Part shown: positions 4,998 through 55,529 of the stretch, piece by piece
Position numbering within the stretch: position 1 is the first letter of the stretch
Layout: each line of letters starts with the position of its first letter
Notes under the pieces: model-generated
Seen by the model: only the letters and a program-made list of their open reading frames with translations
Databases searched by the model: none
What the model was told of the DNA's origin: nothing
Translations under genes and position numbers: made by a program
Source of the DNA: an uncultured Clostridia bacterium
GTDB lineage: Bacteria > Bacillota > Clostridia > TANB77 > CAG-508
Direction of reading: 5' to 3'
Assembly: GCA_944392105.1 (NCBI GenBank)
Contig: CALXVM010000001.1
Coordinates: 110,514-174,513 of the forward strand
Length of the DNA: 64,000 bases

Positions 4998-6032
4998 ATG
5001 TCTAATTGGTATGTTCAAACAGGTAAAGATTCAGATGTTGTTATAAGCTCAAGAGTGAGGTTAGCAAGAAATATAAAAGGAATTCCTTTTATAACAAAAT
5101 GTAATCAAGAAAACTTAGAAAAAGTAATTGATATAATGAATAATGTTGTAAATAGCTTAGGTTATGGTTTAAAACTTTTCAAAATGGATAAAATAGACAA
5201 TATAACTAAATTAAGTTTAGTAGAAAAGCATTTAATAAGTCCTGAGTTTATTTCAAAAAATGATAACACAATAACACAAAATCTAAAAGCAATATTGTTA
5301 AATGATGATGAAAATATTTGTATTATGATAAATGAAGAAGATCATTTAAGAATACAAGTTTTTGGTGCAGGTTTAGATTTGGAAAATTTAAAAAATTTAA
5401 TAGTAGAAATAGATGAAAAAATAGATGAGGCTTGCCATTATGCATGTAACGAAAAATATGGATATTTAACAGCTTGCCCAACAAATGTTGGTACAGGAAT
5501 GCGAGCTTCTGTTATGGTTCATCTTCCTGCTTTAACAATGACAGGAAATATTAACAAAGTATTACAAATTGTTAATAATTTTGGGATGAATATAAGAGGC
5601 TTATATGGTGAAGGTTCTCAAAGTGTGGGCAATATATATCAAATTTCAAATAATCAATCTTTAGGTTTAACAGAAGATGAGATTATTAAAAATTTGAATA
5701 TAATAACGTCAAAAATAATAGAGCAAGAAAGATTAGCTAGAAAAAACTTAACAAAAGAACCTTTAGAGTTAGAAGATAGAATATGCCGTTCATACGGTAT
5801 ATTAACTAATGCAAGAAAACTTACATCAGAAGAGTGCTTAAAACTTTGGTCAGATGTAAAGCTAGGGATGGACTTAGGAATAATAGATGGATTAACAGAC
5901 TTAAAAGTAAACAAAATTAAAATATATAGTCAATCTGGAAACTTGCAAAAATATTTAGGTAATCAGTTAAATGCCTATGAAAGAGATATAGAAAGACCTA
6001 AATTAATTAATAAAATAATAAATGAAAATTAA
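4998..6032 (+). CDS. mcsB: McsB protein-arginine kinase (ATP:guanido phosphotransferase family)
   Basis: Phosphagen-kinase-like core (CPTNVGTGMRASVMVHLP). Operon position fits. Confidence 0.85.
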   Translation: MSNWYVQTGKDSDVVISSRVRLARNIKGIPFITKCNQENLEKVIDIMNNVVNSLGYGLKLFKMDKIDNITKLSLVEKHLISPEFISKNDNTITQNLKAILLNDDENICIMINEEDHLRIQVFGAGLDLENLKNLIVEIDEKIDEACHYACNEKYGYLTACPTNVGTGMRASVMVHLPALTMTGNINKVLQIVNNFGMNIRGLYGEGSQSVGNIYQISNNQSLGLTEDEIIKNLNIITSKIIEQERLARKNLTKEPLELEDRICRSYGILTNARKLTSEECLKLWSDVKLGMDLGIIDGLTDLKVNKIKIYSQSGNLQKYLGNQLNAYERDIERPKLINKIINEN

Positions 6033-34760: not shown

Positions 34761-35741
34761 ATGAAGAAAGGTATAAAAATTTTTATGATAGTATTTTTAG
34801 TACTAATAATATTAGCAGGAATTGCATTTGTGGTAGTTGGAAATTACTTTTTTGATTTCGCTTTAAGTGCAGACTCATCAAAGGCAATGGTGTTGGATAA
34901 TAATCAAGGAAGCGACGAAGAAGATAACGCAGAAAAAACAGAAGAACAAATTAAAGAAGAAAATACAGAAAAAAGCGAATTAAATAAGTGGTTTGAAGAG
35001 ACTAAACAAGATGTTTATATTACATCTGACGATAATTTAAAGCTACATGCATATGAGTTTGTAAATTCAAATGCAACTAATATATGGACAATTGTTATAC
35101 ATGGATATGCTAGTGAAGGAAAACTAATGGCAAATTATACTAAAAAGTTTTATGATATGGGATATAATGTGCTAACTGTAGATTTAAGAGGAGCAGGAGA
35201 AAGTGAGGGAGACTACATTGGCATGGGATGGCCTGACAGACTAGATATTAAAAAATGGATAGATGAAATTGTAAATAAAAATGAAAATAGTAAGATTATA
35301 TTATTTGGCTTATCAATGGGAGCTGCGACAACAATGATGACAACAGGAGAAGAATTGCCAAACAATGTTAAAGTAGCAATAGAAGACTGTGGTTATTCAT
35401 CTGTATGGGATGAATTTGCAGGTCAATTAAAAAAATTATTTAACTTACCAACATTTCCTGCATTAAATGCTGCAGATTTTGTAACAGGAATTAGAGCAGG
35501 TTATAATTTTAAAGAGGCTTCATCTGTAGAACAAGTAAAAAAATCAAATACGCCAACATTATTTATTCATGGAGACAAAGACACATTTGTACCATTTTGG
35601 ATGTTAGATGAAGTTTATAATGCAGCAGCTTGTAAAAAAGAAAAACTTGTGGTAGAAGGGGCAGAACATGCGGAATCTTCAGAAGTAGCACCAGAGTTAT
35701 ATTGGAGTACAGTAGAAAGATTTATAAAGGAAAATTTGTAG
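34761..35741 (+). CDS. Membrane-anchored alpha/beta hydrolase (S9/S15-like esterase)
   Basis: N-terminal TM helix; nucleophile elbow GLSMGAATT; ...HGDKDTFVP. Confidence 0.7.
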   Translation: MKKGIKIFMIVFLVLIILAGIAFVVVGNYFFDFALSADSSKAMVLDNNQGSDEEDNAEKTEEQIKEENTEKSELNKWFEETKQDVYITSDDNLKLHAYEFVNSNATNIWTIVIHGYASEGKLMANYTKKFYDMGYNVLTVDLRGAGESEGDYIGMGWPDRLDIKKWIDEIVNKNENSKIILFGLSMGAATTMMTTGEELPNNVKVAIEDCGYSSVWDEFAGQLKKLFNLPTFPALNAADFVTGIRAGYNFKEASSVEQVKKSNTPTLFIHGDKDTFVPFWMLDEVYNAAACKKEKLVVEGAEHAESSEVAPELYWSTVERFIKENL

Positions 35742-35912
35742 AGAAAGTGAGTTATATTATTGATATGATGCTTTTATTAGACAGATATATAGATTATATT
35801 GAGTGTTTTCCATAAAAAATATTGATAAAAACAAACAAAATTATATGTAATAGGGTATGGTTGGAATTACAGTGCATAATAAATATTAAAAGCCAAATTA
35901 AAATTTTATACA

Positions 35913-35947
35913 AAAAAACTCGTAAGCATTTAAACTTACGAGTTTTA
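35913..35947. terminator. Bidirectional rho-independent terminator
   Basis: A-run, then actcgtaag...cttacgagt, then TTTT. Confidence 0.7.
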
Positions 35948-35970
35948 ATAATTTTTTGTAAAATTCTTGA

Positions 35971-36378
35971 TTATCTCTTGCTAAATTGTGGAGCTTTACG
36001 AGCTTTTTTAAGACCATATTTCTTTCTTTCCTTCATACGAGGATCTCTTGTTAAGAATCCTGCAACTTTTAATGTTGGTCTGTATTCTCCGTTTGCTTGT
36101 AATAAAGCTCTAGATATTCCGTGACGGATTGCACCAGCTTGACCACTAATTCCTCCACCAATAACTTTTGCAACAACATCATATTTGTCTAAAGTATTTG
36201 TAGCAACTAATGGTTGTTTTACAATTACTTTTAATGTTTCTGGTCCAAAATATTCGTTTAATTCTCTTCCATTAACTGTTATAACTCCAGTACCAGGCAT
36301 TAATCTAACTCTAGCGATAGATTTTTTTCTTCTTCCTGTACCTAAAAATACTATTTTTTCTGTTTTAGCTTTAGCCAT
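35971..36378 (-). CDS. rpsI: 30S ribosomal protein S9
   Basis: ...[14 protein letters not shown]...[19 protein letters not shown]...[17 protein letters not shown]. Confidence 0.95.
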
Positions 36379-36379
36379 T

Positions 36380-36817
36380 TTATTTTACCTCCCATACTTC
36401 AGGTTTTTGTGCTATTTGCTCATGCTCACTACCAGCATAAACTCTTAATTTTTTAGCCATTTGTCTTCCTAAACTATTATGTGGAAGCATTCCTACAACT
36501 GCATGTGTCATAACTTTTTCTGGGCTCTTATTCATCATTTCTCTAGCTGTAAGCTCTTTCATTCCACCAATGTATCCTGAAAAGTGTCTGTATACTTTTT
36601 GATCCATTTTCTTTCCAGTTAAAATAGCTTCTTTACAATTAATAATAATAACATTGTCACCAACATCCATATGAGTTGTATAAGTTGGTTTGTGTTTTCC
36701 TCTTAATAATTTTGCAGCTTCTGTAGCAACTCTACCAATTGGCTTATTTGCTGCATCAATTATATACCATTTTCTTTCAATTTCACTTTTTTTAACACTA
36801 TATGTAGTATTGTTCAT
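36380..36817 (-). CDS. rplM: 50S ribosomal protein L13
   Basis: ...[45 protein letters not shown]...; GGAGG site. Confidence 0.95.
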
Positions 36818-36983
36818 GGTAATCTATATCCTCCATTCAATTTTAAACTTAATTATATGAAATAAAAATAAAAACCACCGGGGAGAAGCTTTTACTTTTC
36901 TCATATTCAAATATGCTATATTATTCTATTACAAAAACAAAAAAAAGTCAAGCAAACAGCCAAAAATTATGAAAAATGTTTTA

Positions 36984-37012
36984 GTATATATTGACTTATA
37001 AATAAACAATTT
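36984..37012 (+). promoter_or_regulatory. Consensus SigA promoter (TTGACT, 17 nt, TATAAT) driving the small hydrophobic peptide gene
   Basis: TTGACT at 36984-36989; TATAAT at 37007-37012. Confidence 0.6.
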
Positions 37013-37078
37013 ATATAATTTTATATAGAAATAGGAAAAAGCAGAAGTGTGTCGCCACCAACGTAAGGAGGTGGTTGT

Positions 37079-37189
37079 ATGATAGATTTATTATTACAGT
37101 TAATCATATTACTTTTTGCTGGTTTAGTATCAGTAACTATCATTACTATTACCTTAATTATTGTGATAATACATATATTAAGTAAATAG
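37079..37189 (+). CDS. 36-aa hydrophobic peptide, candidate type I toxin of the Fst/Ldr type (MIDLLLQLIILLFAGLVSVTIITITLIIVIIHILSK)
   Basis: Perfect AAGGAGG site 7 nt upstream; its own consensus promoter; a single TM helix with a polar C-terminal tail (SK). The N-terminus resembles Fst (MKDLMSLVIAPIFVGLV). Confidence 0.5.
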   Translation: MIDLLLQLIILLFAGLVSVTIITITLIIVIIHILSK

Positions 37190-37276
37190 AAAAGAAATAC
37201 ACACTCTGCTTGGCGGTTAGAGTGTGTATTAAATACCAATTTAATCGGCGACCACTTTTGTGGCTTCCTGTTTCTA
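37185..37276 (-). ncRNA. Candidate antitoxin small RNA (about 90 nt) convergent with the small-peptide gene, driven by a minus-strand TTGACA, 16 nt, TGaTATAAT promoter and ending at a hairpin with a U-run
   Basis: On the minus strand, -35 TTGACA (plus 37305-37310) and extended -10 (plus 37283-37291). Terminator hairpin acacactct/agagtgtgt (37199-37227) is followed on the minus strand by auuucuuuucuauuu. Confidence 0.4.
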
Positions 37277-37389
37277 TATAAAATTATATCACATATTTTA
37301 CTTTTGTCAATAATCTATAACAAGAGTCATACAAACTTAATTTCCAAAAAACAGTTGACTTTTTACAAAAAATATAGTATTATAATAAA

Positions 37390-37492
37390 GTAATTTTAAG
37401 AAGAAGCAATCCACTTCTCACCTTATCTTAATGGAAAAAGGTTAGTAAATACATCAAATAAGATTTATTTTTATGTGTGGATTGGCTTTTTA
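37390..37492 (+). promoter_or_regulatory. L20 (rplT) autoregulatory leader / attenuator of the infC-rpmI-rplT operon
   Basis: Long-range pairing gcaatccac (37406-37414) with gtggattggc (37477-37486) followed by TTTTT. A TTGACT promoter lies at 37355-37360. Matches the known Firmicute L20-leader architecture. Confidence 0.5.
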
Positions 37493-37557
37493 CAAGTCAA
37501 TTTTTTTATTGCACATAAATGAAGTTGCACTTGTAACATTTTAGGAGGTGTTTTATT

Positions 37558-38073
37558 ATTAAACAAGAATTGCCAATTAATGAACAAATAAGAGCAAGCA
37601 AGGTTCAAGTAATTGATGAGCAAGGCGAAAAAAGAGGAGTAATGAGCATACATGACGCGTTAGACTTAGCTTATGACAAAAAATTAGACCTAGTTTTAGT
37701 TGCACCAAATGCAGAAATTCCAGTATGTAAAATAATGAACTATGGGAAATACAAATTTGAGCAATCTAAAAAGGAAAAAGAGGCTAAGAAAAAGCAAAAG
37801 ACTTTTGAAATAAAAGAAATTCGTATTACTCCAAACATAGAACAACACGATTTCGAATTTAAACTAAAAAATGCACAAAAATTTATAGAAGACGGCAATA
37901 AGGTTAAAATAACAGTTAGATTTAGAGGTAGAGAAATGAACTATGTAAAATTAGGAGAGCAAGTTTTAAATAAGTTCATTGAAAGACTAGCAGATATTAC
38001 AACTGTTGAGAAAAAACCTTTATTAGAAGGTAAAAATATGTTTATTATATTAGCTAAAAAAGCTGATAAGTAA
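37558..38073 (+). CDS. infC: Translation initiation factor IF-3, initiating at an AUU codon
   Basis: AGGAGGTG (37543-37550) lies 7 nt before ATT at 37558 (IKQELPINEQIRASKVQVIDEQGEK...). The ORF track placed the start at an in-frame TTG at 37570. Confidence 0.9.
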   Translation: MKQELPINEQIRASKVQVIDEQGEKRGVMSIHDALDLAYDKKLDLVLVAPNAEIPVCKIMNYGKYKFEQSKKEKEAKKKQKTFEIKEIRITPNIEQHDFEFKLKNAQKFIEDGNKVKITVRFRGREMNYVKLGEQVLNKFIERLADITTVEKKPLLEGKNMFIILAKKADK

Positions 38074-38122
38074 TATAAATTAAGTAAATTATTTACTTAC
38101 AAAATTAGAAGGAGGAATTTAT

Positions 38123-38326
38123 ATGCCAAAATTAAAGACAAATAAAGCAGCTAAGAAAAGATATTCTTATACAGCTACTGGAAAAGTTAAAAGAACTAAA
38201 TCAAATAGAAGACATCTTTTATCTAACAAATCAACAAGAGCTAGATCAAGAGGAAAAGTTCAAGATGCTTATGCAGACAAGACTTGCAAAGCAGGAATTA
38301 AAAGATTATTGCCATATGGCAACTAA
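38123..38326 (+). CDS. rpmI: 50S ribosomal protein L35
   Basis: MPKLKTNKAAKKRYSYTATGKVKRTKSNRRHL... Confidence 0.9.
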   Translation: MPKLKTNKAAKKRYSYTATGKVKRTKSNRRHLLSNKSTRARSRGKVQDAYADKTCKAGIKRLLPYGN

Positions 38327-38361
38327 TATGAAAATATGAAATGAAAGAAAGGTGAAATAGA

Positions 38362-38706
38362 ATGGCAAGAGTAAAAACAGCATTAATTACACGTAAAAAA
38401 CATAAAAAAATATTAAAAAGAGCAAAAGGTTACTATGGAGCAAAACATTACAGATTTAGAATGGCTAAACAAGCTGTTATGAAATCTGGACAATATGCTT
38501 ATGTAGGAAGAAAAGATAGAAAGAGCAATTTTAGAAAATTATGGATTGCTAGAATAAATGCTGCTGCAAGACAAAATGGATTAACATACAGCAAATTAAT
38601 TAGTGGATTAAAGAAAGCAAATATTGTTATAAATAGAAAAATGTTAGCTGAAATAGCTGTTACAGATCCAAAAGCATTTGCAGAAATAGCTAAAAAAGCA
38701 AAATAA
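38362..38706 (+). CDS. rplT: 50S ribosomal protein L20
   Basis: [30 protein letters not shown]... Confidence 0.95.
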
Positions 38707-39126
38707 TAAGTGCTATTAGTAATTTTAGATATTAATAGTATATGTATATAAGCTTAACAATTAATTTTATAAGAAATTAAAATTTAAGCTATAAAATATT
38801 TAAAATTTTATTAAATATATAGAAAAAAGAAAGTCAATTGTTATATAATACAATTGATTTTTTTATATTATAGGAAAGTTCTATTTTTAAGTAATAGAGA
38901 ACAAAAAATAAAAAGCATAATAAAAATTGCCTCAAAAATAATTTATATGCCAAAATAATTTATATAATAAAATATTCTAAAACGTAAAATTTCTTTAAAT
39001 AATATTAGTTTGGCATTATTGCTGTAGAGTATAAAAATATAAGTTGTTACAAAATAGATTATTAAAAATAATTTAAATATTAGAGTATATTATGAAAAAT
39101 AAATAAAAAAATAAGGAGGAATACTA

Positions 39127-55125: not shown

Positions 55126-55201
55126 GGGCGCATAGCTCAGCTGGGAGAGCATCTGCCTTACAAGCAGGAGGTCATAGGTTCGAGCCCTATTGCGCCCACC
55201 A
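55126..55201 (+). tRNA. tRNA-Val (anticodon TAC)
   Basis: Cloverleaf with anticodon loop cTTACaa and 3' CCA. Confidence 0.9.
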
Positions 55202-55212
55202 TTTTTATAAAT

Positions 55213-55289
55213 GGCCTGGTAGTTCAGTTGGTTAGAATGCTAGCCTGTCACGCTAGAGGTCGACGGTTCGAGCCCGTTCCAGGTCGCCA
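55213..55289 (+). tRNA. tRNA-Asp (anticodon GTC)
   Basis: Cloverleaf with anticodon loop cTGTCAc and 3' CCA. Confidence 0.9.
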
Positions 55290-55397
55290 TTTTTTTAGCC
55301 AAATAGTTTAAAATAAACATTTGGCAATTTTTAAATAAAAGCACATATATTAATAAGGAAATATGTATGTGCAATACAAATTAATATAGTTATGAAT

Positions 55398-55445
55398 GCC
55401 TTGATAGCTCAGTTGGTAGAGCAAGGGACTGAAAATCTTTGGTGC
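55398..55445 (+). pseudogene. Degenerate 5' half of tRNA-Phe (acceptor, D and anticodon arms only), a duplicated fragment
   Basis: gccttgatagctcagttggtagagcaagggactgaaaatctttgg. It matches the intact tRNA-Phe up to the anticodon arm and lacks the T arm. Confidence 0.7.
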
Positions 55446-55453
55446 AATTTAAT

Positions 55454-55529
55454 GCCTTGATAGCTCAGTTGGTAGAGCAAAGGACTGAAAATCCTTGTGT
55501 CACTGGTTCGATTCCAGTTCAAGGCACCA
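55454..55529 (+). tRNA. tRNA-Phe (anticodon GAA)
   Basis: 76-nt cloverleaf with anticodon loop cTGAAaa and 3' CCA. Confidence 0.9.

Follow-up and report, generated by a model that had tools for sequence, protein, structure and literature searches.

What is encoded by the piece of about 390 base pairs (bp) that lies between the divergent genes rplM and infC in a stretch of 64,000 nucleotides (nt) from an uncultured Clostridia bacterium (contig CALXVM010000001.1, positions 110,514 to 174,513), the whole of which is called here the window? A preliminary description of this DNA, made from the letters alone, had proposed an Fst-like type I toxin-antitoxin locus beside the rplM promoter. The piece is probably a type I toxin-antitoxin-like cassette and belongs to a family from uncultured gut Clostridia that had not been described before, and we give this reading, in which the systems of Clostridioides difficile were compared by description only, a probability of about three in four. 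Its predicted products are those generic to type I systems, namely a small hydrophobic peptide encoded on a short mRNA and a cis-antisense RNA with its own promoter. Judged from sequence, the cassette is par-like in geometry, is not related to Fst and is without the pairing logic of par.

The 36-amino-acid (aa) hydrophobic open reading frame (ORF) of the preliminary description is present, with the Shine-Dalgarno sequence (SD) AAGGAGG and its own TTGACT/17/TATAAT promoter (coordinates in Table 1). The convergent minus-strand RNA of about 90 nt, said to end at the same hairpin, is also borne out by prediction, as this small RNA (sRNA) has a promoter that scores 12/12 and a predicted fold of -26.9 kcal/mol (z = -4.7), which is equalled by none of 200 shuffles. 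The sRNA comprises a hairpin, H1, and the terminator hairpin common to both RNAs, whose 9-bp, G+C-containing stems ACACACTCT/AGAGTGTGT (-16.5 kcal/mol) close the 11-nt loop GCUUGGCGGUU, with a YUNR motif (CUUG) in the mRNA sense. The sRNA had been described as overlapping the 3' end of the peptide gene, which holds for the 3' untranslated region (UTR) and the terminator and not for the coding region, of which it reaches the stop codon only. The plus and minus promoters of the cassette are the two best promoter-like sites in the local kilobase; this kilobase is AT-rich and has 11 promoter-like matches (7.0 +/- 2.7 in shuffles), and since such matches are frequent in AT-rich DNA the local scan alone is weak evidence. 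What really supports these signals is that the complete arrangement is conserved in about 100 contexts that are unrelated to one another.

The search for homologous pairs of peptide and sRNA, which the preliminary description had suggested, was run and found a family. Comparison of the element by blastn and tblastn with 80 rplM loci of relatives gave the first two homologues (L015 and L026), which lie 3' of rpsI in two metagenome-assembled genomes of GTDB; no copy lies 5' of rplM in the 80 loci searched in this way. A DNA pattern made from the 5' part of the sRNA retrieved one IMG/VR contig (L091), in which the cassette adjoins tail, amidase and serine-integrase genes at a prophage end, and at least 120 metagenome contigs. 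Among the matches listed there are 99 unique full-length elements, to which all counts out of 99 refer. A peptide profile search retrieved 803 clusters at 90% identity, none with a Pfam domain and nearly all unnamed or called hypothetical, apart from one Caudoviricetes name and one spurious transporter label. All loci retrieved by the peptide that extend past the terminator have an sRNA gene downstream on the opposite strand (E = 7e-23 for L212-L216 and E = 0.005 for L224-L226; L222 by eye), and they occupy chromosomal spacers, for example adjoining spo0A (L212) or between udg and an oxidoreductase gene. The window peptide matches the family profile with 43 bits (E = 1.5e-12) and the window sRNA matches the family model with E = 2e-8 (nhmmer), where profile and model each contain the window sequence itself, and the search with the family model finds one copy only in the 64-kb window. 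Neither the GenBank phages nor the PLSDB plasmids hold a record that matches the cassette, and characteristic strings of peptide and RNA gave no result in a full-text literature search.

A divergent clade 2 (L222, 3922-4290; L224, 3921-4290), which is known only through the peptide profile because the DNA pattern missed it, has the terminator stem GCACCACA/UGUGGUGC and an H1 of AGCACA/UGUGCU (L224). Paired copies are seen in L188, with two sRNA genes about 2.7 kb apart, and in L210, with two about 1.5 kb apart, and four peptide-bearing contigs (L217-L220) break exactly at the terminator, which suggests that the cassette is multi-copy and breaks assemblies. Near its cassette L026 also has a 52-aa ORF (5372-5530, minus strand) that looks like a piece from the N-terminus of a ToxN/AbiQ-type protein, in which case the cassette of L026 would lie in a small defence or toxin-antitoxin islet.

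The peptide gene, which ends just 5' of the terminator across the family, is intact in 79 of the 99 elements as scored, with 33-40 codons, and in 80 with L099, whose ORF was missed by the SD filter. The peptides form four sequence groups, A (MIEAVLLEIIYLLLFGLVVETIIVFALVILVIILSK), B (...IYILYYSLIGVTIIAFALIIALVIIISKxx), C (MFMVKVILFFIISLMLSLTLNVALTAVLYKNWVDKQLHK) and D (MVDFLLFLIIGFMISLTINIALLTVIFIMWTNKE); the window peptide sorts with groups A and B and has LLFAGLVSVTII in common with the independently retrieved P0077 and P0038. Codon position 2 is the least variable and insertions and deletions (indels) are in frame, a pattern that is the one expected of a hydrophobic protein, and the product is predicted to be a single-helix, hydrophobic peptide of membrane type. 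The gene is lost in 19 of the 99 elements, in all of which the promoter and the 5' part of the sRNA, as a minimum, remain: in 8 it is truncated or deleted (in L151 and L156 a deletion has brought the 5' module right up against the C-terminal codons), and the other 11 show no homology to the peptide, 5 of these being also without the sRNA terminator. Loss of the peptide with retention of the sRNA would be decay typical of toxin-antitoxin loci.

Loci of group B (for example L113, L141 and L212) have an AUG within the 5' motif (CAG-AUG-UGG), in frame with the peptide ORF, and for this reason their gene calls are of 50-57 aa and start with MWFAS.KEVRRM. No SD accompanies this AUG, the window lacks it, and in group A it is out of frame. 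Small ORFs that lie within the 5' modules have no conserved frame and were discarded for this reason.

The control signals are kept along with the peptide. The sRNA promoters average 11.3/12 and have TATAAT in 92 of the 99 elements, while the toxin promoters are weaker, with an average of 9.3/12. Pairing between the SD and an anti-SD upstream of it persists, changing from CCACC:GGUGG to CCUCC:GGAGG between subfamilies, and in eight other modelled members the unpaired probability of the SD is 0.00-0.47 (0.00-0.06 in five). The terminator is bidirectional throughout, its stems differ by lineage, and the mRNA-sense loop has YUUG in 41 of 52 unique loop variants of the family. Alignment of the sRNAs with MAFFT followed by RNAalifold recovered H1 alone, because the terminators were misaligned, and folding of each sequence was used instead. 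Promoter strengths, anti-SD, terminator and peptide ORF lie outside the pattern used for retrieval and are conserved all the same.

Cofolding of the two RNAs, an interaction prediction of the sort that the preliminary description had proposed, predicts one continuous perfect intermolecular duplex at the 3' ends, which has 43-52 bp across the family and about 46 bp in the window (37190-37235, from just after the stop codon). Neither H1 of the sRNA nor the SD hairpin is disturbed by this duplex, and no other contact is predicted. The repeat search finds no direct repeats of DRa/DRb type in the cassette, in 22 members the 5' part of the sRNA pairs with the mRNA no more stably than shuffled sequences do, and the initiation region forms no conserved contiguous helix with the sRNA in the five members scored. 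The same procedure is positive on a real par locus (L228, fetched with the Fst peptide), at -34.5 kcal/mol versus -15.1 +/- 2.4 kcal/mol and 0/300 shuffles, and folding of this control reproduces its 5'-SL and 5'-UH helices, so the absence of a DRa/DRb-type contact in the cassette is meaningful. Since the 3' duplex is the sole contact found, the sRNA is likely to act in the manner of the Bacillus 3'-overlap systems.

A second helix is predicted within the toxin mRNA, between motif 'a' of its 5' module and the 5' arm of the terminator. In the window this helix has -18.6 kcal/mol versus -7.9 +/- 2.3 kcal/mol in shuffles (0/500), and it is found in 22 of 22 representatives (-13.8 to -18.6 kcal/mol; shuffles -6 to -8); in those with a different terminator (window, L099, L165, L093 and L026) compensatory changes are seen. 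Even clade 2, with the unrelated stem GCACCACA, retains it, at -18.1 and -17.2 kcal/mol (0/500). Pairing of the 5' motif with the terminator arm of the sRNA itself was rejected, being weaker than the intramolecular helix in all 22 (means -10.3 versus -15.4 kcal/mol). Forcing the 5'-3' helix takes 0.3-4.5 kcal/mol over the free ensemble in 8 of 9 modelled members and 9.4 kcal/mol in L099. The helix uses the 5' arm of the terminator itself and thus competes with the terminator hairpin and with sRNA pairing, so that, in these models, the mRNA 5' end in effect mimics the 3' arm of the sRNA. It could serve as an mRNA stabiliser, as par 5'-UH and hok fbi do, as a control of sRNA access or in antitermination. 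Constrained folding gives equal SD accessibility in the free, sRNA-bound and 5'-3'-helix states, and an effect of the helix or of sRNA binding on SD exposure is therefore unsupported.

Both RNAs start with the same, not with complementary, sequence, because an inverted repeat in the DNA covers the -10 region of the promoters and the first 30-35 nt or so of both transcripts; its right arm spans the sRNA -10 box and about the first 25 nt of the sRNA. The mRNA starts with AUAGAAAUAGGAA..GUGUGUCGCC and the sRNA with AUAGAAACAGGAA..GUGGUCGCC. The GTCGCC motifs that the preliminary description had pointed out in the mRNA 5' UTR and in the sRNA do exist (37051-37056, plus strand; 37253-37248, minus strand), and they belong to the inverted repeat and have the same sense in both RNAs, so they cannot pair and are not contact sites. 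The two modules of a locus vary together: the U-spacer in GUGG-Un-GCC is identical between them in 54 of 63 non-redundant loci, their first 13 nt resemble each other more within one locus than across loci (0/2000 in a permutation test), and in clade 2 both modules of L222 and of L224 carry ..UGCUACCA.. instead. The lineage structure limits the independent co-change events to about four or five, and the co-change may have come about through gene conversion between the repeats. No published counterpart was found for twin 5' modules of the same sense or for the covarying helix that joins the mRNA 5' end to the terminator arm.

If the cassette acts as a type I system, pairing of sRNA and mRNA would start by loop-loop contact at the conserved YUUG loop. 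RNase III would cut the long duplex and the toxin mRNA, deprived of its protective 3' hairpin, would decay as in the 3'-overlap systems of Bacillus subtilis, with the SD hairpin holding translation low until then. Once the supply of sRNA stops, the peptide would be made and would damage the membrane. Pairing of the mRNA 5' motif with the terminator 5' arm may form a 5'-3' lock or a conformational switch, comparable to par 5'-UH and hok fbi. A more tentative proposal, which we consider possible and rather doubtful, is a three-part RNA switch, so far undescribed in toxin-antitoxin systems, in which the mRNA 5' end, the antitoxin 3' arm and the terminator hairpin compete for the 5' terminator arm. 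The competition would determine either how much transcription reads on into the sRNA gene (self-antitermination, promoter collision) or how receptive the mRNA is to the sRNA, and the twin same-sense modules might be read by a common factor, with control by identity and not by complementarity.

Several points weigh against the toxin-antitoxin reading. Conservation of the sRNA 5' part is there by construction, since most loci were fetched with the pattern for this part. A strict terminator scan lists no terminator at the cassette hairpin, probably because the 11-nt loop exceeds the 8-nt limit of the scan, and on the plus strand the U-tract after the hairpin (AUUAAAU) is poor, which makes the 3' end of the predicted toxin mRNA uncertain. 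The window copy is atypical in that its toxin promoter (11/12) nearly equals its sRNA promoter (12/12), and its SD is only partly paired, with an unpaired probability of 0.41. Of the codon differences in the 36-aa group, 279 are synonymous and 773 non-synonymous, raw counts that show purifying selection on hydrophobicity but no strong selection of this kind on the residues as such. The C-terminus of the window peptide, like that of groups A and B, is ...ILSK(xx), without the strongly charged tail common in type I toxins. The match of the 5'-3' helix could be kept by gene conversion among repeats and not by selection for pairing. The unchanged SD accessibility in silico predicts no translational effect of the sRNA. 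All functional statements made here, finally, are inferences from sequence, comparison and folding.

The rival that survives best, though we hold it to be unlikely, is a non-toxic small membrane protein, for example a modulator of a membrane complex, whose level is tuned by the antisense sRNA. The almost purely hydrophobic peptide with its minimal charged tail would suit such a protein, as would copies in core-genome spacers (infC/rplM, and the neighbour of spo0A in L212). The cassette moves, however, among unrelated contexts that include a prophage end, with no constant partner gene, its antisense promoter is consistently stronger than the sense promoter, its SD is sequestered, and its peptide gene is recurrently lost while the sRNA is retained. 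The signs of multiple copies, seen in the close pairs of L188 and L210 (within 3 kb) and in contigs broken at the terminator, also speak against such a protein.

Very unlikely is the closer variant of the original proposal, a true diverged member of Fst/par in which the sRNA blocks translation at the 5' initiation region. In par of the Enterococcus faecalis plasmid pAD1 the promoters are convergent, the terminator is bidirectional, the SD lies in a stem-loop, a 5'-3' helix is formed and the sRNA does not overlap the ORF (PMC7472228). The cassette has the same geometry, with convergent promoters, a shared terminator with a YUNR loop, the SD in a 5' stem-loop, an mRNA helix from 5' end to 3' UTR like par 5'-UH and an sRNA that stays off the ORF, and its hydrophobic peptide of 33-40 aa is similar in length to Fst, with which 8 of the first 19 residues agree by eye. 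The peptide N-terminus had been said to resemble Fst, which fails as a sign of homology. Fst models of Pfam and NCBIfam (hmmscan, E<=10) match neither the window peptide nor five family representatives, and hhalign of the family with Fst, for which a sequence with at least 97% match to annotated Fst genes was used, gives a probability of 0.7%. A PDB profile search at E<=10, in a copy in which the presence of the Fst and PepA1 structures was not checked, returned only SecG (E = 0.36); both toxins have published NMR structures (PMC7472228).

The PXXXG(C) motif in the transmembrane helix of Fst is essential for toxicity and is followed by a charged C-terminal tail (Weaver 2020, PMC7472228), whereas PXXXG, or any proline, is absent from 22 aligned family peptides, which also have no acidic or charged tail of this kind; their tails are ILSK, SKQK or SKSE, with KNWVDKQLHK in group C. 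The Rfam models RF02844 and RF02848 (RNA II and RNA I) give no match at E<=10 in 35500-39000 and score 84 and 53 bits on L228, the real par locus. The cassette also differs from par in having no DRa/DRb repeats and no sRNA complementarity to the initiation region above shuffles, where the par control is positive. Its repeat is inverted, so that both RNAs carry the same-sense 5' module, and its 5'-3' helix uses the terminator 5' arm and competes with terminator and sRNA. The par-like architecture of the preliminary description thus stands for convergent promoters, shared bidirectional terminator and 5' stem-loop over the SD, and not for the RNA I/RNA II mechanism, as models and complementarity both fail. 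On this sequence evidence membership in Fst/par is largely refuted.

The place of the cassette was defined by comparison with relatives. The infC-rplM spacer has 752 bp in the window; in 18 related species, which likewise have the two genes side by side and divergent, it has 319-495 bp and no insert. In five aligned relatives the two -35 boxes are 10-35 bp apart and the roughly 390 extra bases of the window lie exactly between them; by this alignment the cassette is an insertion into the infC-rplM spacer. CCAAAAA is read at both edges of the insert (36960-36966 and 37344-37350), and this pair may have arisen by duplication of a target site or may be fortuitous in DNA so rich in AT. Such an insertion, with ends that contain inverted repeats, a possible 7-bp direct repeat and signs of multiple copies, would also suit a non-coding MITE-like repeat in which 46-bp inverted repeats are accompanied by an incidental ORF and promoters. 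We find this highly improbable. The inverted repeat is internal, covering promoter and transcript starts, and not terminal; an open frame of 33-40 codons is preserved in about 80% of the 99 listed elements, divergent and AT-rich as they are, with the substitution pattern of a hydrophobic protein and in-frame indels. SD and anti-SD co-vary, the peptide profile recovers the 803 clusters and the 64-kb window has a single copy. The last alternative, named in the preliminary description as what would refute it, is that the minus-strand promoter, which is directed toward rplM from 460 nt away, is the rplM-rpsI operon promoter and the region its leader, and this is practically excluded by the alignment of relatives, as rplM has its own promoter-like site whose -35 box is kept in insert-free relatives, a hairpin with a U-rich tail stands 50-90 nt 3' of the minus-strand start, and this sRNA gene is also found in places that have no relation to rplM.

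Table 1. Features of the cassette and of its surroundings in the window (strand "." where both or neither strand applies)
Feature	Position	Strand	Basis or remark
Inserted cassette, about 390 bp	36960-37350	.	alignment with five relatives; comparison of spacer lengths
Promoter of peptide (toxin) mRNA, TTGACT/17/TATAAT	36991-37019	+	scores 11/12
Inverted repeat, 46 nt, 78%	left arm 37004-37049, right arm 37253-37298	.	repeat search
Predicted toxin mRNA, about 210 nt, from ATAG start to hairpin end	37025-37235	+	ends placed from promoter and hairpin positions and family alignment
mRNA 5' module, AUAGAAAUAGGAA...GUGUGUCGCC	37025-37056	+	same sense as sRNA 5' module
Motif 'a', AAAGCAGAAGUGUGUC	37038-37053	+	complementary to terminator 5' arm and loop start
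Anti-SD GCCACC (37054-37059) with GGUGGU (37070-37075)	37054-37075	+	partly sequesters SD; folding
SD AAGGAGG	37065-37071	+	7 nt 5' of ATG
ORF of 36-aa hydrophobic peptide, putative toxin	37079-37189	+	MIDLLLQLIILLFAGLVSVTIITITLIIVIIHILSK; ORF translation
Bidirectional terminator hairpin common to both RNAs	37196-37230	.	stems 37200-37208 / 37220-37228
Partner of motif 'a', UACACACUCUGCUUG	37198-37212	+	terminator 5' arm and first loop bases
Predicted sRNA (putative antitoxin), about 90 nt	37277->37188	-	single-stranded 5' end, H1, spacer, terminator, U-rich tail
sRNA hairpin H1, GCCAC-AAAA-GUGGU	37251-37264	-	folding
sRNA promoter, TTGACA/16/TGaTATAAT	37310-37283	-	12/12, TG before -10
rplM	36380-36817	-	
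Promoter-like site of rplM, TTGACT/17/TAGAAT	36951-36923	-	-35 box conserved in relatives without insert
Promoter-like site of infC, TTGACT/17/TATTAT	37355-37383	+	
infC	37570-38073	+	

The neighbouring operons have features of their own. The segment 37392-37515 (plus strand), 5' of infC-rpmI-rplT, matches the L20 leader with 49.9 bits against a gathering score of 58.7 (E = 4e-8), and probably represents a diverged version of the common leader for L20 autoregulation. In the rplM 5' UTR the block 36874-36888, in RNA sense CUUCUCCCCGGUGGU, is kept in five related species while its flanks vary; it has no Rfam family match and is a candidate element of an L13/S9 autoregulatory leader. Ten contigs of the same species are identical at the cassette apart from one or two single-nucleotide polymorphisms. 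In all ten the gene callers annotated not the peptide but an antisense 40-aa ORF (37021-37143, minus strand), whose counterparts across the family have 21-98 aa and are not conserved, and this call is probably a systematic mis-annotation. The exact window peptide was not found on record as a called gene. Three tRNA genes at 55126-55526 (plus strand) are unrelated to the cassette.

The family, with its 803 peptide clusters at 90% identity on hundreds of contigs, is without Pfam or Rfam match and bears uninformative names, and gene callers miss or mis-call it, to the point of calling the antisense strand in this species. In the group to which the uncultured gut Clostridia belong, experimental validation has so far been given only for systems of C. 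difficile. The cassette separates architecture from ancestry, since it has a par-like layout without par pairing logic. As it sits between the promoters of two operons for ribosomal proteins and a translation factor, it also offers a natural case for transcriptional interference by an inserted toxin-antitoxin unit.

Among other known systems, hok/sok and aapA1/IsoA1 have a conserved 5'-3' helix in the toxin mRNA that competes with other conformations. The cassette resembles them in this long-distance helix. They are Gram-negative systems, however, whose antisense RNA pairs at the 5' part or ORF and whose helix directly controls access to the SD and is removed by 3' processing, whereas in the cassette SD access is unchanged in the models and the 3' partner of the helix is the terminator arm. 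CD2517.1-RCd8, CD0956.2-RCd10 and others of C. difficile are validated clostridial type I systems (Soutourina 2019, PMC6563280). They are of the same class, with convergent overlapping toxin and antitoxin genes, some in prophages and with unannotated toxins; as far as their description goes, they differ in toxins of 34-53 aa with a lysine-rich C-terminal region and in the frequent use of Sigma B promoters (PMC6563280).

The B. subtilis pairs txpA/RatA, bsrG/SR4, bsrE/SR5 and yonT/SR6 have, like the cassette, a convergent antitoxin that pairs with the toxin mRNA 3' end only, and their SD is partly sequestered in the toxin mRNA. Their overlap is longer than 100 nt, while that of the cassette, of 43-52 nt, is confined to the 3' UTR and terminator. 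In Gram-positive 3'-side antisense systems the 3' part of the ORF is included in the overlap as well (T1TAdb paper, PMC8594479), and the long perfect duplex is expected to be cut by RNase III (PMC8594479). The Rfam models of the B. subtilis RNAs (BsrG, RatA, SR4 and related) give as best match in the cassette a chance-level BsrG hit of 14 bits (gathering score 55, E = 3.5). Judged by its architecture, it is nevertheless to these Gram-positive 3'-side antisense systems that the cassette appears functionally closest.

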